Below are positions 18,960-59,271 of a DNA stretch of 64,000 bases, piece after piece. A model generated the notes under the pieces. It ran no database searches. It was not told where the DNA came from and saw nothing but the letters and a program-made list of their open reading frames with translations. This DNA comes from Escherichia coli (GTDB lineage: Bacteria; Pseudomonadota; Gammaproteobacteria; Enterobacterales; Enterobacteriaceae): the NCBI RefSeq assembly GCF_044647545.1, contig NZ_CP172818.1; one strand, written 5' to 3'. Numbering within the stretch: position 1 is the stretch's first letter; the number at the start of each line of letters is the position of its first letter. The position numbers and the translations under genes were made by a program.

Positions 18960-19310
18960 TTGCATCCCTTTCATTTAATGAGTTATGTCTTCTCAAATTT
19001 CGCGATGCAATAAATGGGCATATATTAGGTAGCATGACCGATTTAATTATAATTTTGCGACTGAGTTCAAATTATTGCCCCTCAATCTGTGCCGCTTTCA
19101 TTATTTCAACATTGCCGAACAAAAGAGAGCTAACCAGATAAAAACGATTAAATACGAGAGTGCGACATGCCAGAATGATTAATGAAATATCAATATGAGA
19201 AAATTACAGATAATTCCATTGTCAGGTTCTCTTCTCATTTTCGTGTTTTAACCACGATTATGTGATTGCCTCCGCAATTCCTGTCTCTAACTCCCCTTCC
19301 TCGCAAAAAC

Positions 19311-19326
19311 TGGCACTCCACGAGCA
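19311..19326 (+). promoter_or_regulatory. candidate sigma-54 (-24/-12) promoter upstream of uacT
   Basis: TGGCAC at 19311-19316 and GCA at 19324-19326 with consensus GG-N10-GC spacing, about 70 bp upstream of the uacT ATG. Confidence 0.3.
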
Positions 19327-19394
19327 TGTGTTTAGACAGTTTCATGAACGTAAACGGTTGCTTTTTACTCTGGCGAGCGAAAGGAGAAACACTG

Positions 19395-46287: not shown

Positions 46288-46518
46288 TCAGACCCCGTTG
46301 GCAAGCCGCGTGGTTAACTCATCCATAAAATATCGCGCAATGGCGGGCATCCCCTTTCGCCCGGCAAATAAAGCATACAACGGTCTGGGTATGCCGCTCC
46401 ACGGTGCAAACAGGCGCACCAGTTCACCGTTCGCAAGCCCCTGTTTACAGGCAAATTGAGGCAATAACGCCACGCCATTCAACCCAACCGGGACGCGAAC
46501 TCGCCGAGCAAAATGCAT
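46288..46518 (-). pseudogene. yqfE: LysR-family regulator remnant (C-terminal fragment only)
   Basis: 76-codon frame resembling the C-terminal co-inducer domain of a LysR regulator; no N-terminal HTH region upstream. Confidence 0.6.
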
Positions 46519-46584: not shown

Positions 46585-46845
46585 ATGTCTATTAAGCAAA
46601 ATTTATTTGCCGCATTATTTCTTTGCACTCTCACAGGACACGCATTTGCCGCAACCGAGATACACAAACCGGACAATAATCTTGAACAGTTATCAAAAGT
46701 GAGCATGTCCACACACAATAGCAATCCAGCGGGCGTTGAAAGCCAAATCAAAAGAGAAAGCGGAAGAGTTACAAGCCAGCAATTACTACATCAGTTCTTT
46801 CTCCGTAAAAATTATATCCACGCCACTGTAATTTTCTATAAATAG
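46585..46845 (+). CDS. hypothetical small secreted protein (86 aa, predicted signal peptide)
   Basis: ATG preceded by strong RBS AAAAGGAG; N-terminal hydrophobic stretch ending in AFA; AT-rich; no recognised homolog. Confidence 0.4.
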   Translation: MSIKQNLFAALFLCTLTGHAFAATEIHKPDNNLEQLSKVSMSTHNSNPAGVESQIKRESGRVTSQQLLHQFFLRKNYIHATVIFYK

Positions 46846-47528
46846 CCCCTCTGTTTAACGGAAGCATGGAATTATTCCATGCTCCTCTGCCAAAATGAAA
46901 TAAAAAATGAAAAAAGCTAATCTTACAGGTACGTTGGTTTGCTTTGTCGCATGCCTTATTTTTTTGTCGTCCGGTGATATTTTTCGTGAAAAGCCAATCG
47001 CTCTAATATGGTTCCTTCGACAAAACATACTCTTTTTTACGGGAACTCTTGCGTGGTGTCTGATGACGCTGACGATGTGTTTATCGTTGCGTTCATCATG
47101 GCTTAACAAAGTGCTGGGCGGTCTGGATAAAGTATGGCGAATCACATAAGTGGGCAGGAATATGCGCCATAGCGTTTGCTTTCGCCCACTGGCTGGATGA
47201 AAAATTACCCCAGTTATTCGTCGCCTTTGGCTGGCTTACTCACCCTGGTAAAATCGTTGATATTAACCTGACGCCAGTACAAGAAAATTGGCTTCATGCG
47301 GGACTGTTAGCGGGTGAATGCGCAATGTTTATTATTATAGCGATGGTTTGCGTATCTCTTAGCAAAAGAGTTCCCTATCATTTATTTCATCTTGTTCACC
47401 GTTTGTTCCCCGTCTTTTATCTGGCAATTGCCTTTCATGTGTTTACTGCTTTGTTTAAATCATACTGGTGGAACTCCTGCTGCGTATTTATTAATTTTAA
47501 TTACTATTCCGGGCGTCTTTGCGGCTTT

Positions 47529-47537
47529 CATTTCGCT
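47529..47537. repeat. IS1 target-site duplication, left copy (CATTTCGCT)
   Basis: Identical 9-mer directly flanks both IS1 ends. Confidence 0.8.
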
Positions 47538-47552
47538 GGTAATGACTCCAAC

Positions 47553-47942
47553 TTACTGATAGTGTTTTATGTTCAGATAATGCCCGATGACTTTGTCATG
47601 CAGCTCCACCGATTTTGAGAACGACAGTGACTTCCGTCCCAGCCTTGCCAGATGTTGTCTCAGATTCAGGTTATGTCGCTCAATGCGCTGAGTGTAACGC
47701 TTGCTGATTACGTGCAGCTTTCCCTTCAGGCGGGATTCATACAGCGGCCAGCCATCCGTCATCCATACCACGACCTCAAAGGCCGACAGCAGGCTCAGAA
47801 GACGCTCCAGTGTGGCCAGAGTGCGTTCACCGAAGACGTGCCACAACCGTCCTCCGTATCCTGTCATACGCGTAAAACAGCCAGCGCTGACGTGATTTAG
47901 CACCGACGTAGCCCCACTGTTCGTCCATTTCAGCGCAGACAA
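47553..47942 (-). CDS. insB: IS1 InsB-like transposase C-terminal ORF
   Basis: 129 aa ending ...[54 protein letters not shown]; overlaps the insA-like ORF in a different frame. Confidence 0.7.
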
Positions 47943-48252
47943 TCACATCACTGCCCGGCTGTATGCGCGAGGTTACCGACTGCGGCCTGAGTTTTTTAAT
48001 AAAGTGACGTAAAATCGTGTTGAGGCCAACGCCCATAATGCGGGCGGTCGCCCGGCATCCAACACCATTCATGGCCATATCAATGATTTTCTGGTGTGTA
48101 CCGGGTTGAGAAGCGGTGTAAGTGAACTGCAGTTGCCATGTTTTACGGCAGTGAGAGCAGAGATAGCGCTGATGTCCGGCAGTACTTTTACCGTTACGCA
48201 CCACGCCTTCAGTAGCTGAGCAGGAGGGACAACTGATGGAGATGGAAGCCAC
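47827..48252 (-). CDS. insA: IS1 InsA-like ORF, continuing in frame into the N-terminal part of InsB (141 aa)
   Basis: Starts [40 protein letters not shown] (InsA zinc-finger/HTH) and runs past the usual A6C slippery region. Confidence 0.7.
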
Positions 48253-48307
48253 GGGAGCACCTCAAAAACACCATCATACACTAAATCAGTAAGTTGGCAC
48301 CATTACC

Positions 48308-48316
48308 CATTTCGCT
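48308..48316. repeat. IS1 target-site duplication, right copy (CATTTCGCT)
   Basis: Identical 9-mer directly flanks both IS1 ends. Confidence 0.8.
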
Positions 48317-49082
48317 GCTGAAATTCAAACGGTAGTAAAAACAAGCATCAGGCTACCATTAAAAACATTGTTAACCATCCAGGACAAATTACCGAAGTCA
48401 CCCTGGAACTGGAACATGCCATCGACTATTCTCCGGGGCAGTTTGCATTCTTAACGTTCGCACACAGTAAAGAATCTCACCCTTTTACTATCGCTTCATA
48501 CACCAAAGAGAAGAACACGTTGCGCTTTGCCATCAAAAATTTAGGGGATTATACCTCTACCCTTGCATCCTCGATAAAAATCGGCCAGTCCGCCTTCGTT
48601 GAAGGGCCATGGGGAAAGTTTGATTTAGACTCTCCCTTGCTCCCACCAGGTCTGGATAGCAGGAGGCATCGGCATTACCCCCTTTATCGCCCAGCTTGAG
48701 TATCGTAAACATCATGGCGCGTCCTCTGTTCCTGTGGATCTCTGGTATTACGTCAGCCGAAGCGAGGATGCCTGGTATGTTGATAAACTGACCTCACTTT
48801 GTGCCCAGGCCAGGGTCACACTGCATCTGCTTGATGCGCATAAAGGTGAGCGCCTACAGGCGCACTATCTTACTGATAAAATAGCAAATAAAGGTGACAC
48901 CCATTTCTGGTTTTGCGGCCCACAGAGTTTTGCCAAAGCGCTCAGCAAAGGGTTATATGAAAATGGGATTGCCAGCCAAAACTTCCATTACGACCGTTTT
49001 TGTATGCGTTAAATGCTCTGTACCCAACGCAAAATTGTGTCATAGTGCAGGAAAAAGCATTTACCAGGAGCAGACAACAGCA

Positions 49083-49976
49083 ATGAAACGCCCGGACTAC
49101 AGAACATTACAGGCACTGGATGCGGTGATACGTGAACGAGGATTTGAACGCGCGGCACAAAAGCTGTGCATTACACAATCAGCCGTCTCACAGCGCATTA
49201 AGCAACTGGAAAATATGTTCGGGCAGCCGCTGTTGGTGCGTACCGTACCGCCGCGCCCGACAGAACAAGGGCAAAAACTGCTGGCACTGCTACGCCAGGT
49301 GGAGTTGCTGGAAGAAGAGTGGCTGGGCGATGAACAAACCGGTTCGACTCCGCTGCTGCTTTCACTGGCGGTCAACGCCGACAGTCTGGCGACGTGGTTG
49401 CTTCCGGCGCTGGCTCCTGTGTTGGCTGATTCGCCTATCCGCCTCAACTTGCAGGTAGAAGATGAAACCCGCACTCAGGAACGTCTGCGCCGCGGCGAAG
49501 TGGTCGGCGCGGTGAGTATTCAACATCAGGCGCTGCCGAGTTGCCTTGTCGATAAGCTCGGTGCGCTTGACTATCTGTTCGTCAGCTCAAAACCGTTTGC
49601 CGAAAAATATTTCCCTAACGGCGTAACGCGTTCGGCATTATTGAAAGCACCTGTGGTCGCCTTTGACCATCTTGACGATATGCACCAGGCCTTTTTGCAG
49701 CAAAACTTCGATCTGCCCCCAGGCAGCGTACCGTGCCATATCGTTAATTCTTCAGAAGCGTTCGTACAACTTGCTCGCCAGGGCACCACCTGCTGTATGA
49801 TCCCGCACCTGCAAATCGAGAAAGAACTGGCCAGCGGCGAACTGATTGACTTAACGCCGGGGCTATTTCAACGCCGGATGCTCTACTGGCACCGCTTTGC
49901 TCCTGAAAGCCGCATGATGCGTAAAGTCACTGATGCGTTGCTCGATTATGGTCACAAAGTCCTTCGTCAGGATTAA
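49083..49976 (+). CDS. argP: LysR-type transcriptional regulator ArgP (IciA)
   Basis: 297-aa product from the [15 protein letters not shown] start; the 360-aa track ORF is an upstream extension. Confidence 0.93.
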
Positions 49977-50179: not shown

Positions 50180-52323
50180 ATGTCTAACGTGCAGGAGTGG
50201 CAACAGCTTGCCAACAAGGAATTGAGCCGTCGGGAGAAAACTGTCGACTCGCTGGTTCAGCAAACCGCGGAAGGGATCGCCATCAAGCCGCTGTATACCG
50301 AAGCCGATCTCGATAATCTGGAGGTGACAGGTACCCTTCCTGGTTTGCCCCCTACGTTCGTGGCCCGCGTGCCACTATGTATACCGCCCAACCGTGGACC
50401 ATCCGTCAGTATGCTGGTTTTTCAACAGCAAAAGAGTCCAACGCTTTTTATCGCCGTAACCTGGCCGCCGGGCAAAAAGGTCTTTCCGTTGCGTTTGACC
50501 TTGCCACCCACCGAGGCTACGACTCCGATAACCCGCGCGTGGCGGGCGACGTCGGCAAAGCGGGCGTTGCTATCGACACCGTGGAAGATATGAAAGTCCT
50601 GTTCGACCAGATCCCGCTGGATAAAATGTCGGTTTCGATGACCATGAATGGCGCAGTACTACCAGTACTGGCGTTTTATATTGTCGCCGCAGAAGAGCAA
50701 GGTGTTACACCCGATAAACTGACCGGCACCATTCAAAACGATATCCTCAAAGAGTATCTTTGCCGCAACACCTATATTTACCCGCCAAAACCGTCAATGC
50801 GTATTATCGCAGACATCATCGCCTGGTGTTCCGGCAACATGCCGCGATTTAATACCATCAGTATCAGCGGTTACCATATGGGTGAAGCGGGTGCCAACTG
50901 CGTGCAGCAGGTAGCATTTACGCTCGCTGATGGGATTGAGTACATCAAAGCAGCAATCTCCGCCGGGCTGAAAATTGATGACTTCGCTCCTCGCCTGTCG
51001 TTCTTCTTCGGCATTGGCATGGATCTGTTTATGAACGTCGCCATGTTGCGTGCGGCACGTTATTTATGGAGCGAAGCGGTCAGTGGATTTGGCGCACAGG
51101 ATCCGAAATCACTGGCGCTGCGTACCCACTGCCAGACCTCAGGCTGGAGCCTGACTGAACAGGATCCGTATAACAACGTTATACGCACCACCATTGAAGC
51201 ACTGGCTGCAACGCTGGGCGGTACTCAGTCACTGCATACCAACGCCTTTGATGAAGCGCTTGGTTTGCCTACCGATTTCTCAGCACGCATTGCCCGCAAT
51301 ACCCAGATCATCATTCAGGAAGAATCAGAACTCTGCCGCACCGTCGATCCACTGGCCGGATCCTATTACGTTGAATCGCTGACCGATCAAATCGTCAAAC
51401 AAGCCAGAGCCATTATCCAACAGATCGACGAAGCCGGTGGCATGGCGAAAGCGATCGAAGCAGGTCTGCCAAAACGAATGATCGAAGAGGCCTCAGCGCG
51501 CGAACAGTCGTTGATCGACCAGGGCAAGCGTGTCATCGTTGGTGTCAACAAGTACAAACTGGATCACGAAGACGAAACCGATGTACTTGAGATCGACAAC
51601 GTGATGGTGCGTAACGAGCAAATTGCTTCGCTGGAACGCATTCGCGCCACCCGTGATGATGCCGCCGTAACCGCCGCGTTGAACGCCCTGACTCACGCCG
51701 CACAGCATAACGAAAACCTGCTGGCTGCCGCTGTTAATGCCGCTCGCGTTCGCGCAACGCTTGGTGAAATTTCCGATGCACTGGAAGCGGCATTTGACCG
51801 TTATCTGGTGCCAAGCCAGTGTGTTACCGGCGTGATTGCGCAAAGCTATCATCAGTCTGAGAAATCGGCCACCGAGTTCGATGCCATTGTTGCGCAAACG
51901 GAGCAGTTCCTTGCCGACAATGGTCGTCGCCCGCGCATTCTGATCGCCAAAATGGGCCAGGATGGGCACGATCGCGGCGCGAAAGTGATCGCCAGCGCCT
52001 ATTCCGATCTCGGTTTCGACGTAGATTTAAGCCCGATGTTCTCTACACCTGAAGAGATCGCCCGCCTGGCAGTAGAAAACGACGTTCACGTAGTGGGCGC
52101 ATCTTCACTGGCTGCCGGTCATAAAACGCTGATCCCGGAACTGGTCGAAGCGCTGAAAAAATGGGGACGCGAAGATATCTGCGTGGTCGCGGGTGGCGTC
52201 ATTCCGCCGCAGGATTACGCCTTCCTGCAGGAGCGCGGCGTGGCGGCGATTTATGGTCCAGGTACGCCTATGCTCGACAGCGTGCGCGACGTACTGAATC
52301 TGATAAGCCAGCATCATGATTAA
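50180..52323 (+). pseudogene. scpA: methylmalonyl-CoA mutase ScpA (Sbm) with a 1-nt frameshift near 50348-50352
   Basis: First 57 codons in one frame (ORF 50159-50593), the rest including the conserved [22 protein letters not shown] in the -1 frame (ORF 50377-52323); span is 1 nt short of a 714-aa ORF; C-terminal B12-binding region present. Confidence 0.75.
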
Positions 52324-53311
52324 TGAAGCCACGCTGGCAGAAAGTATTCGCCGCTTACGTCAGGGTGAGCGTGCCACGCTCGCCCAGGCCATGACGCTGG
52401 TGGAAAGCCGTCACCCGCGTCATCAGGCGCTAAGTACGCAACTGCTTGATGCCATTATGCCGTTCTGTGGTAACGCCCTGCGACTGGGTGTTACCGGCAC
52501 ACCCGGCGCGGGGAAAAGTACCTTTCTTGAAGCCTTTGGCATGTTGTTGATTCGTGAGGGACTAAAGGTTGCGGTTATTGCGGTCGATCCCAGCAGCCCG
52601 GTCACTGGCGGTAGCATTCTCGGAGATAAAACCCGCATGAATGATCTGGCGCGTGCCGAGGCGGCGTTTATTCGCCCGGTACCCTCCTCCGGTCATCTGG
52701 GCGGTGCCAGTCAGCGAGCGCGGGAATTAATGCTGTTATGCGAAGCGGCGGGTTATGACGTAGTGATTGTCGAAACGGTTGGCGTCGGACAGTCGGAAAC
52801 GGAAGTCGCCCGCATGGTGGACTGTTTTATCTCGTTGCAAATTGCCGGTGGCGGCGATGATCTGCAGGGCATTAAAAAGGGGCTGATGGAAGTGGCAGAT
52901 CTGATCGTTATCAACAAAGACGATGGCGATAACCATACCAATGTCGCCATTGCCCAGCATATGTACGAGAGTGCCCTGCATATTCTGCGACACAAATACG
53001 ACGAATGGCAGCCACGGGTTCTGACTTGTAGCGCACTGGAAAAACGTGGAATCAATGAGATCTGGCACGCCATCATCGACTTCAAAACCGCGCTAACTGC
53101 CAGTGGTCGTTTGCAACAAGTACGGCAACAACAATCAGTGGAATGGCTGCGTAAACAAACCGAAGAAGAAGTACTGAATCACCTGTTCGCGAATGAAGAT
53201 TTCGATCGCTATTACCGCCAGACGCTTTTAGCGGTCAAAAACAATACGCTCTCACCGCGCACCGGCCTGCGACAGCTCAGTGAATTTATCCAGACGCAAT
53301 ATTTTGATTAA
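52316..53311 (+). CDS. argK: methylmalonyl-CoA mutase-associated G-protein (MeaB-like GTPase)
   Basis: 331-aa ORF with P-loop GTPGAGKST; overlaps scpA stop by 8 bp. Confidence 0.92.
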
Positions 53312-53321
53312 AGGAATTTTT

Positions 53322-54107
53322 ATGTCTTATCAGTATGTGAACGTTGTCACTATCAACAAAGTGGCGGTCATTGAGTTTAACTATGGCCGAAAACTTAATG
53401 CCTTAAGTAAAGTCTTTATTGATGATCTTATGCAGGCATTAAGCGATCTCAACCGGCCGGAAATTCGCTGTATCATTTTGCGCGCGCCGAGTGGATCCAA
53501 AGTCTTCTCCGCAGGTCACGATATTCACGAACTGCCGTCTGGCGGTCGCGATCCGCTCTCCTATGATGATCCGTTGCGTCAAATCACCCGCATGATCCAA
53601 AAATTCCCGAAACCGATCATTTCGATGGTGGAAGGTAGTGTTTGGGGTGGCGCATTTGAAATGATCATGAGTTCCGATCTGATTATCGCCGCCAGTACCT
53701 CAACCTTCTCAATGACACCTGTAAACCTCGGTGTCCCGTATAACCTGGTCGGCATTCACAATCTGACCCGCGACGCGGGCTTCCACATTGTCAAAGAGCT
53801 GATTTTTACCGCTTCGCCAATCACCGCCCAGCGCGCGCTGGCTGTCGGCATCCTCAACCATGTTGTGGAAGTGGAAGAACTGGAAGATTTCACCTTACAA
53901 ATGGCGCACCACATCTCTGAGAAAGCGCCGTTAGCCATTGCCGTTATCAAAGAAGAGCTGCGTGTACTGGGCGAAGCGCACACCATGAACTCCGATGAAT
54001 TTGAACGTATTCAGGGGATGCGCCGCGCGGTTTATGACAGCGAAGACTACCAGGAAGGGATGAACGCTTTCCTCGAAAAACGTAAACCTAATTTCGTTGG
54101 TCATTAA
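53322..54107 (+). CDS. scpB: methylmalonyl-CoA decarboxylase (crotonase fold)
   Basis: 261-aa product from the MSYQYVNVVTINK start. Confidence 0.92.
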   Translation: MSYQYVNVVTINKVAVIEFNYGRKLNALSKVFIDDLMQALSDLNRPEIRCIILRAPSGSKVFSAGHDIHELPSGGRDPLSYDDPLRQITRMIQKFPKPIISMVEGSVWGGAFEMIMSSDLIIAASTSTFSMTPVNLGVPYNLVGIHNLTRDAGFHIVKELIFTASPITAQRALAVGILNHVVEVEELEDFTLQMAHHISEKAPLAIAVIKEELRVLGEAHTMNSDEFERIQGMRRAVYDSEDYQEGMNAFLEKRKPNFVGH

Positions 54108-54130: not shown

Positions 54131-55609
54131 ATGGAAACTCAGTGGACAAGGATGACCGCCGATGAAGCGGCAGAAATTATCCAGCATAACGACATGGTGG
54201 CATTTAGCGGCTTTACCCCAGCGGGTTCGCCGAAAGCCTTACCCACCGCGATTGCCCGCAGAGCTAACGAACAGCATGAGGCCAAAAAGCCGTATCAAAT
54301 TCGCCTGCTGACGGGGGCGTCAATCAGCGCCACCGCTGACGATGTACTTTCTGACGCCGATGCTGTTTCCTGGCGTGCGCCATATCAAACATCGTCCGGT
54401 TTACGTAAAAAGATCAATCAGGGCGCGGTGAGTTTCGTTGACCTGCATTTGAGCGAAGTGGCGCAAATGGTCAATTACGGTTTCTTCGGCGACATTGATG
54501 TTGCCGTCATCGAAGCATCGGCACTGGCACCGGATGGTCGAGTCTGGTTAACCAGCGGGATCGGTAATGCGCCGACCTGGCTGCTGCGAGCGAAGAAAGT
54601 GATCATTGAACTTAATCACTATCACGATCCGCGCGTTGCAGAACTGGCAGATATTGTGATTCCTGGCGCGCCACCGCGGCGCAATAGCGTGTCGATCTTC
54701 CATGCAATGGATCGCGTCGGTACCCGCTATGTGCAAATCGATCCGAAAAAGATTGTCGCCGTCGTGGAAACCAACTTGCCTGACGCCGGTAATATGCTGG
54801 ATAAGCAAAATCCCATGTGCCAGCAGATTGCCGATAACGTGGTCACGTTCTTGTTGCAGGAAATGGCGCATGGGCGTATTCCGCCGGAATTTCTGCCGCT
54901 GCAAAGTGGCGTGGGCAATATCAATAATGCGGTAATGGCGCGTCTGGGGGAAAACCCGGAAATTCCTCCGTTTATGATGTATTCGGAAGTGCTACAGGAA
55001 TCGGTGGTGCATTTACTGGAAACCGGCAAAATCAGCGGGGCCAGCGCCTCCAGCCTGACAATCTCGGCCGATTCCCTGCGCAAGATTTACGACAATATGG
55101 ATTACTTTGCCAGCCGCATTGTGTTGCGTCCGCAGGAGATTTCCAATAACCCGGAAATCATCCGTCGTCTGGGCGTCATCGCTCTGAACGTCGGCCTGGA
55201 GTTTGATATTTACGGGCATGCCAACTCAACGCACGTAGCCGGGGTCGATCTGATGAACGGCATCGGCGGCAGCGGTGATTTTGAACGCAACGCGTATCTG
55301 TCGATCTTTATGGCTCCGTCGATTGCTAAAGAAGGCAAGATCTCAACCGTCGTGCCAATGTGCAGCCATGTTGATCACAGCGAACACAGCGTCAAAGTGA
55401 TCATCACCGAACAAGGGATCGCCGATCTGCGCGGTCTTTCCCCGCTTCAACGCGCCCGCACTATCATTGATAATTGTGCACATCCTATGTATCGGGATTA
55501 TCTGCATCGTTATCTGGAAAATGCGCCCGGCGGACATATTCACCACGATCTTAGCCACGTCTTCGACTTACACCGTAATTTAATTGCAACCGGCTCGATG
55601 CTGGGTTAA
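54131..55609 (+). CDS. scpC: propionyl-CoA:succinate CoA-transferase
   Basis: 492-aa ORF matching ScpC (YgfH). Confidence 0.92.
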   Translation: METQWTRMTADEAAEIIQHNDMVAFSGFTPAGSPKALPTAIARRANEQHEAKKPYQIRLLTGASISATADDVLSDADAVSWRAPYQTSSGLRKKINQGAVSFVDLHLSEVAQMVNYGFFGDIDVAVIEASALAPDGRVWLTSGIGNAPTWLLRAKKVIIELNHYHDPRVAELADIVIPGAPPRRNSVSIFHAMDRVGTRYVQIDPKKIVAVVETNLPDAGNMLDKQNPMCQQIADNVVTFLLQEMAHGRIPPEFLPLQSGVGNINNAVMARLGENPEIPPFMMYSEVLQESVVHLLETGKISGASASSLTISADSLRKIYDNMDYFASRIVLRPQEISNNPEIIRRLGVIALNVGLEFDIYGHANSTHVAGVDLMNGIGGSGDFERNAYLSIFMAPSIAKEGKISTVVPMCSHVDHSEHSVKVIITEQGIADLRGLSPLQRARTIIDNCAHPMYRDYLHRYLENAPGGHIHHDLSHVFDLHRNLIATGSMLG

Positions 55610-59137: not shown

Positions 59138-59271
59138 TCAATATTCCTTTTCAACTGACTCAAAATGGAGAAATACACTCCGCCGCCTTATGACGGGCAG
59201 TCTGACAAGGGTAAACAATAAAGCATAATTTTGCCAAATAGATCACAGATTTCTCATCTGTATCCTCTGGC

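Follow-up and report, generated by a model that had tools for sequence, protein, structure and literature searches.

The closest described system to the locus studied here is the Escherichia coli mutase ScpA, or Sbm ('sleeping beauty mutase', b2917), which belongs to the sbm-ygfD-ygfG-ygfH operon. This operon is hardly expressed, and cobalamin (B12) is not synthesised by E. coli (PMC3850637). In the 64,000-nucleotide stretch of E. coli DNA that we analysed, hereafter the window, the gene has the same locus, neighbours and start codon. It differs from the K-12 gene in that, as deposited, a single missing C interrupts its frame at codon 58/59. The two also differ in how P57-P58 is written, since K-12 has CCG-CCC and consequently no six-C run, whereas the lineage of the window has CCC-CCC. 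Judged from these genomes, an unbroken six-C run is a feature of some E. coli lineages only.

The gene is scpA (sbm), encoding the adenosylcobalamin-dependent methylmalonyl-CoA mutase of the sbm-meaB-scpB-scpC operon. When one C was added in silico, we obtained a 714-aa protein identical to ScpA of ECONIH1, with 4 of 714 residues differing from those of K-12 ScpA. This repaired protein matches the Pfam families MM_CoA_mutase (PF01642, residues 28-539, E 4e-235) and B12-binding (PF02310, residues 586-701, E 9e-20), and aligns with the human MUT structures 2XIJ and 8GJU (928 bits) from residue 6 onwards. Since the mutase domain spans residues 28-539 and the alignment with the human enzyme begins so early, the codon 58/59 break lies inside the catalytic domain. 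Downstream are genes for a MeaB-type GTPase, a methylmalonyl-CoA decarboxylase and a CoA transferase, as in the described operon, and meaB, scpB and scpC are all intact and identical to those of ECONIH1. The gene assignment made in the first-pass annotation is correct. The coordinates are collected in Table 1, including those of a DGHDRG sequence conforming to DxHxxG, which we take to be the cobalamin-binding motif.

The start codon of scpA is the ATG at 50180, opening MSNVQEWQQLANKELS, and frame 0 is correct through L56, P57 and P58, read as TTG CCC CCT at 50345-50353. This frame is terminated by TGA after 137 codons, giving a 137-aa product, and the conserved block of 24 residues is found in the frame starting at 50182, that is the -1 frame, whose stop is at 52321-52323. 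The whole span from 50180 to 52323 has 2144 nt, or 715x3 minus 1 (714 codons and a stop, short by one), and the CCCCC tract is the sole run of four or more C within 50301-50420. The sequence as deposited therefore holds no uninterrupted full-length scpA frame, the break falling at 50348-50353. All this agrees with the first-pass annotation, which had reported a 1-nt frameshift near the 5' end of the gene, a conserved block in the -1 frame and a span 1 nt short of a 714-codon ORF, and had mapped the break to the 5-C tract. The nearest relatives have C6 there. The longest ORF called in the -1 frame begins at ATG 50377 (M67) and has 648 aa; no Shine-Dalgarno-like sequence was found upstream of that ATG. 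The TGA of frame 0 overlaps the in-frame ATG at 50590 (M138 of intact ScpA) as ATGA, at 50590-50593.

Table 1. Coordinates of scpA, its disrupted frames and the neighbouring genes in the window.
Feature	Position	Strand	Remarks
argP (iciA)	49083..49976	+	upstream neighbour, intact
scpA codons 1-58, original frame	50180..50353	+	MSNVQ...LPGLPP
C5 homopolymer, site of the 1-nt deficit	50348..50352	+	relatives C6 (CCCCCC), K-12 CCGCCC
Remainder of scpA, Y59 to stop	50353..52323	+	-1 frame, identical to ECONIH1 ScpA
Out-of-frame continuation of frame 0	50354..50593	+	79 aberrant codons, ends at TGA 50591-50593
DGHDRG (DxHxxG), residues 595-600	51961..51978	+	part of the Pfam B12-binding domain; motif intact in the -1 frame
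meaB (argK/ygfD), GTPase	52316..53311	+	intact, 8-nt overlap between its start and the scpA stop
scpB (ygfG), methylmalonyl-CoA decarboxylase	53322..54107	+	intact
scpC (ygfH), propionyl-CoA:succinate CoA transferase	54131..55609	+	intact

Among its relatives scpA is a full-length ORF, and it is disrupted in the window. The closest of them (ECONIH1, MS6198 and about a dozen others) are 99.9% identical to the window over 20 kb and all have CCCCCC. Over the 4.6 kb of argP-scpA-meaB, there are no SNPs between the window and either ECONIH1 or FDAARGOS_497, the sole difference being the 1-nt gap. Since the nearest relatives differ only at that base, the break is not a chance pattern. The comparison with scpA of other strains, which the first-pass annotation had proposed, gave CCCCCC for ECONIH1 and FDAARGOS_497 and CCGCCC for K-12, where it lies in an in-frame 714-codon gene with the same start; the reference is thus not an identical sequence read from a different start, as that annotation had allowed.

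We found the exact 82-nt C6 haplotype in 301 complete RefSeq E. coli genomes and its C5 version in 3 of 5422, namely B1.H1.1 (Poland) and two isolates of a single Bangkok submission that holds several unrelated strains. The three records, NZ_CP146571.1 (V8956_RS01835), NZ_CM142673.1 (ACYTVL_RS06285) and NZ_CM142671.1 (ACYTVJ_RS21405), share with the window the C5 allele, its 81-nt context and the 2144-nt span, and in all three PGAP labels scpA a 'frameshifted' pseudogene. In 4.6 kb, 8, 77 and 23 SNPs, respectively, separate them from the window, and none has the rpiA-argP island that is present in the window. Because their backgrounds are set apart by these SNPs and by the missing island, the C5 events (or errors) in the three carriers are independent, and no clade shares the lesion by inheritance. 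In each carrier scpA is the only frameshifted gene within 40 kb, a status that does not discriminate between systematic error and real mutation; our search found no literature giving the platform of these three assemblies.

The exact products of the broken scpA were then looked up in a collection of 15 billion proteins. The collection has 38 contigs with the 648-aa ORF that begins at M67, and one with the 137-aa frame-0 peptide. We read the tract in 11 contigs carrying an otherwise identical scpA allele and found that its length varies in 10 of them: C4 in L014, C5 in L013, L015, L018, L021, L022 and L023, C7 in L017 and L020, and C8 in L016. In L019 the frame is broken by an unrelated +T, 9 nt downstream of the tract. 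Five contigs belong to one background (0-1 SNP from B1.H1.1 or from each other), and they display C4, C5, C5, C7 and the +T. Such scatter within one background is not the behaviour of a fixed allele.

Extra indels, mostly in other homopolymers and accompanied by few SNPs or none, occur within a few kb in 6 of the 11 variant contigs, while in the other 5 the tract is the sole difference from the intact reference. For example, L014 has further indels at C5>C4, A6>A5, T8>T6 and T3>T2, L016 (GCA_012977915.1) has A6>A7 beside C6>C8, L018 has an additional C5>C4, and L015 (GCA_029964605.1), a 5.1-Mb contig with C5 and 0 SNPs against ECONIH1, has T8>T7. Three short contigs start inside homopolymers, either A5 at about 50121 or T8 at about 50095, and their assembly graphs branched there. 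Over 5.2 kb the Logan contig L022 (ERR15284546) matches the window exactly, C5 included, but it begins inside the A5 run, which suggests homopolymer-noisy reads, and it therefore gives no independent accurate confirmation of C5.

When the blocks of the collection that hold the broken ORF, or the intact 714-aa product of the same allele, were classed by their longest contig, which is only a proxy for sequencing platform, the broken form was unevenly distributed (Table 2). The 20 kb-1 Mb class, which we assume to be typical of short-read draft assemblies, has 2 broken blocks in 5559 (0.036%), against 4 in 272 (1.47%) above 1 Mb (Fisher OR 41, P=6.5e-5) and 38 in 920 (4.1%) at 2-10 kb (Fisher OR 120, P=1.8e-30). 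Tract-length variants thus follow assembly type, with a strong association, rather than lineage. Of the two blocks in the 20 kb-1 Mb class, one has C5 on a contig of 27.7 kb and the other C8 on a contig of 368 kb; since they sit in a short-read-like size class, some tract variants may be real, at about 0.04%.

Table 2. Blocks with broken and intact scpA by length of the longest contig.
Longest contig	Broken	Intact	Broken share
2-5 kb	20	276	6.8%
5-10 kb	18	606	2.9%
10-20 kb	6	981	0.6%
20-50 kb	1	1792	0.056%
50-200 kb	0	2711	0%
0.2-1 Mb	1	1054	0.095%
over 1 Mb	4	268	1.5%

The explanation that we favour, and consider likely, is that the C5 of the window is a homopolymer-length sequencing or assembly error. 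The lineage writes P57-P58 as CCC-CCC, a run of six C of which the deposited sequence retains five, and the undercall of the run would have passed through consensus or polishing uncorrected, the assembly being long-read or otherwise prone to homopolymer noise. The organism itself would then possess an intact 714-codon scpA, with no biological event at the tract. The first-pass annotation had left two alternatives standing, a genuine inactivation of this cryptic operon and a homopolymer error; both are formally possible, and the evidence clearly shifts the weight towards error.

We favour error because C5 is private to the window against more than 10 near-identical C6 relatives (99.9% over 20 kb), and because it is rare (3/5422) with an apparent batch effect, two of the three carriers coming from the one Bangkok submission. 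It is also favoured because the tract scatters from C4 to C8, even within one background, because the share of broken scpA depends on assembly type, and because carriers show co-occurring homopolymer indels and three short contigs begin in homopolymers. The window's own make-up argues in the same direction, since it carries many private indels and few SNPs and is contiguous through an IS1. In the region, only one G/C run other than the scpA tract reaches 6 nt or more. What is seen is therefore what a homopolymer error would produce: a change of one nucleotide in a run (C6 to C5), private against near-identical genomes, and associated with assembly type rather than lineage (OR 41 and 120). Read-level homopolymer accuracy has been given as 74% for R9.4.1 and 85% for R10.4.1 (PMC11610603). 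The tract is preceded, at a distance of 4 nt, by a Dcm site (CCTGG, 50339-50343). We rejected methylation at this site as the trigger of an error, given that current R10.4.1 models are reported to reach about 99% accuracy at CCWGG (PMC11610603), and it is a lead only for older chemistries.

The window runs without a gap through the IS1 at which the Logan contig L017 ends. Because of this contiguity its source would be a long-read or finished assembly, which would place it in the class with 1.5% broken scpA. That the window belongs to this error-prone class, and that its C5 would be one such error, is a statistical argument.

Several other features of the window bear on its quality. Over 46750-48628 the window carries 13 gap openings and 4 SNPs that set it apart from all close relatives, a dense private cluster that affects every gene there: a DUF1471 gene, a ferric-reductase-like gene, the IS1 and a FAD-binding oxidoreductase gene. 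In the DUF1471 gene, a +1 at 46750 is followed by a -1 at 46804, the frame being regained after 54 nt. We considered whether the cluster might reflect a different haplotype that really exists, or a different isoform of IS1, and rejected both, as no exact match was found among 226 copies of the island or about 74,000 copies of IS1; the cluster looks like a locally unpolished or low-quality assembly patch. At 46480/46481 there is a private deletion of 1346 bp relative to ECONIH1 (record 3396129-3397474), which removes most of a LysR-family regulator gene and an FMN-dependent NADH-azoreductase gene. No microhomology was found at the junction, and since it adjoins the indel cluster, the deletion may have arisen in joining the assembly and not in the organism. 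At 33008-33010, directly behind the bglA stop, the window lacks about 98 bp, a REP-like palindromic element, that all close relatives have; this gap, too, is private.

Private small intergenic changes were also observed at 605 (-AA), at 30358 (-C) and at 59264-59267 (a 7-nt complex change, 10 nt to 3 nt), and all three adjoin strong hairpins that are terminator- or REP-like. With the 98-bp gap they make up four scattered private indels besides that in scpA, every one of them beside strong hairpins in the intergenic 8.3% of the region (P about 5e-5 under uniform error), a placement that fits context-specific error and also a selection-filtered set of real changes. Some private indels of the window lie at short runs, whereas its T8, A6, A/T7 and second C6 runs are correct. 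Outside the 46750-48628 cluster, only 2 SNPs separate the window from the tight clade, and such an excess of indels over substitutions matches no natural mutation spectrum. Besides the C6 at 2995, the correct runs are ten A/T runs of 7 together with an A6 and a T8 that immediately precede scpA, and the assembly of the window therefore probably has no general homopolymer problem.

Two further broken genes were noted in the window. The urate/proton symporter gene uacT (19395-20833) is split into overlapping ORFs at 19266-20489 and 20393-20833; its sequence is that of ECONIH1, in which PGAP calls it 'frameshifted'. Because the break is common to both, uacT is probably a real pseudogene, unlike scpA. 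At about 47530-48300, the IS1 lies within a ferric-reductase/FAD-binding oxidoreductase gene and cuts it in two; in L016 (GCA_012977915.1) this single gene is intact, with 441 aa. This insertion is common to ECONIH1-like strains, and at least 80% of the island-plus-IS1 stretch is covered in only 33 complete genomes.

The principal rival to an error is a genuine recent pseudogene, in which replication slippage on C6 would have deleted one C in the window strain, and we regard it as unlikely. A real loss would be tolerated in an operon that is hardly expressed, in a species making no cobalamin (PMC3850637), and mononucleotide runs of at least 5 nt are genuine indel hot spots (PMC8510543). The remaining long homopolymers of the window are correct, and its other private indels lie in intergenic sequence or in the IS1-split island, a pattern of purifying selection. 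Furthermore, the three RefSeq genomes in which PGAP calls scpA frameshifted have no other frameshifted gene in 40 kb, and two variant blocks do occur within the 20 kb-1 Mb contig class. However, variants in that class amount to only 0.036%, about 40-fold below the class of the window, and C5 is private against its many near-identical relatives. The presence of C4, C5 and C7 within one clonal background, and the excess of private indels over SNPs in the window, with no natural spectrum, also speak against a pseudogene.

It is also conceivable, but in our judgement very improbable, that the C6 run in lineages that went from CCG-CCC to CCC-CCC is a real slip-strand hot spot, at which the mutase would repeatedly be turned off (C5, C7) and perhaps turned back on, so that part of the C4-C8 variation would be biological. 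Least probable of all is a functional role of the tract, either as a site of recoding by a -1 ribosomal slip or, in CCCCCC lineages, as a slip-strand ON/OFF phase switch of the mutase. For recoding, tRNA-Pro would slip -1 from CCU (50351-50353) to CCC (50350-52), read TAC and regenerate the wild-type LPPYV, and a single-tRNA -1 slip on C-CCC-CCU would indeed give the native sequence. We rejected programmed -1 frameshifting at scpA, since the tract, read as G_CCC_CCU, offers no slippery X_XXY_YYZ heptamer, the 96 nt downstream of it form no more stable a fold than shuffled sequences do (z = -0.38) and the site is not conserved, scpA being in frame in essentially all of roughly 5400 complete E. 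coli genomes and C5 occurring in 3. As to a phase switch, tract lengths from C4 to C8 do exist in public assemblies, but the length polymorphism tracks assembly type and not lineage (0.036% at 20 kb-1 Mb) and the tract has only 6 nt.

If the deletion were real, the product would be a 137-aa protein with 58 native and 79 aberrant residues and no mutase, and the conversion of succinyl-CoA to methylmalonyl-CoA would be lost. Restart at M138 or M67 would at best yield an N-terminally truncated protein without the start of the catalytic domain. The genes meaB, scpB and scpC would be intact but might be affected by polarity, which termination-reinitiation at the ATGA of 50590-50593 could soften by keeping ribosomes on the message. 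No phenotype would be expected in ordinary culture, where loss of scpA should be free of cost. Biologically, even a real deletion would be minor: a further case in which E. coli loses a B12-dependent operon that it barely expresses and does not need in culture.

The consequences for annotation are of another kind. The CCCCCC at scpA codons 57-58 is a site at which run length is recurrently miscalled in public E. coli assemblies, and the 'frameshifted scpA' calls in at least three RefSeq complete genomes (NZ_CP146571.1, NZ_CM142673.1 and NZ_CM142671.1) are probably spurious, given that tract variants depend on assembly type. Caution is thus warranted in counting scpA pseudogenes, and in scoring pan-genome presence and absence, from long-read-only assemblies, and any scpA 'frameshift' that a long-read E. 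coli assembly places at this C run deserves distrust until accurate reads have been consulted. Whether it is an error or a pseudogene, the scpA finding is an ordinary one.

The window itself contains a conserved, real recoding site in prfB (about 23201-24299, - strand), whose well-known programmed +1 frameshift, marked by an in-frame stop, is annotated as such, in contrast to scpA. To our knowledge, known G/C contingency tracts are longer than six bases, and the scpA tract has neither the long repeat nor the platform-independent polymorphism of a phase-variable contingency locus. The closer likeness is to the residual homopolymer errors of long-read bacterial assemblies. Although the window departs from a general long-read homopolymer error in that its T8, A7/T7 and second C6 runs are correct, it shows, as such assemblies do, a 1-nt contraction of a G/C run private to one assembly. 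The tract variants are overrepresented both in contigs over 1 Mb and in highly fragmented ones, and several carriers have indels at further homopolymers.
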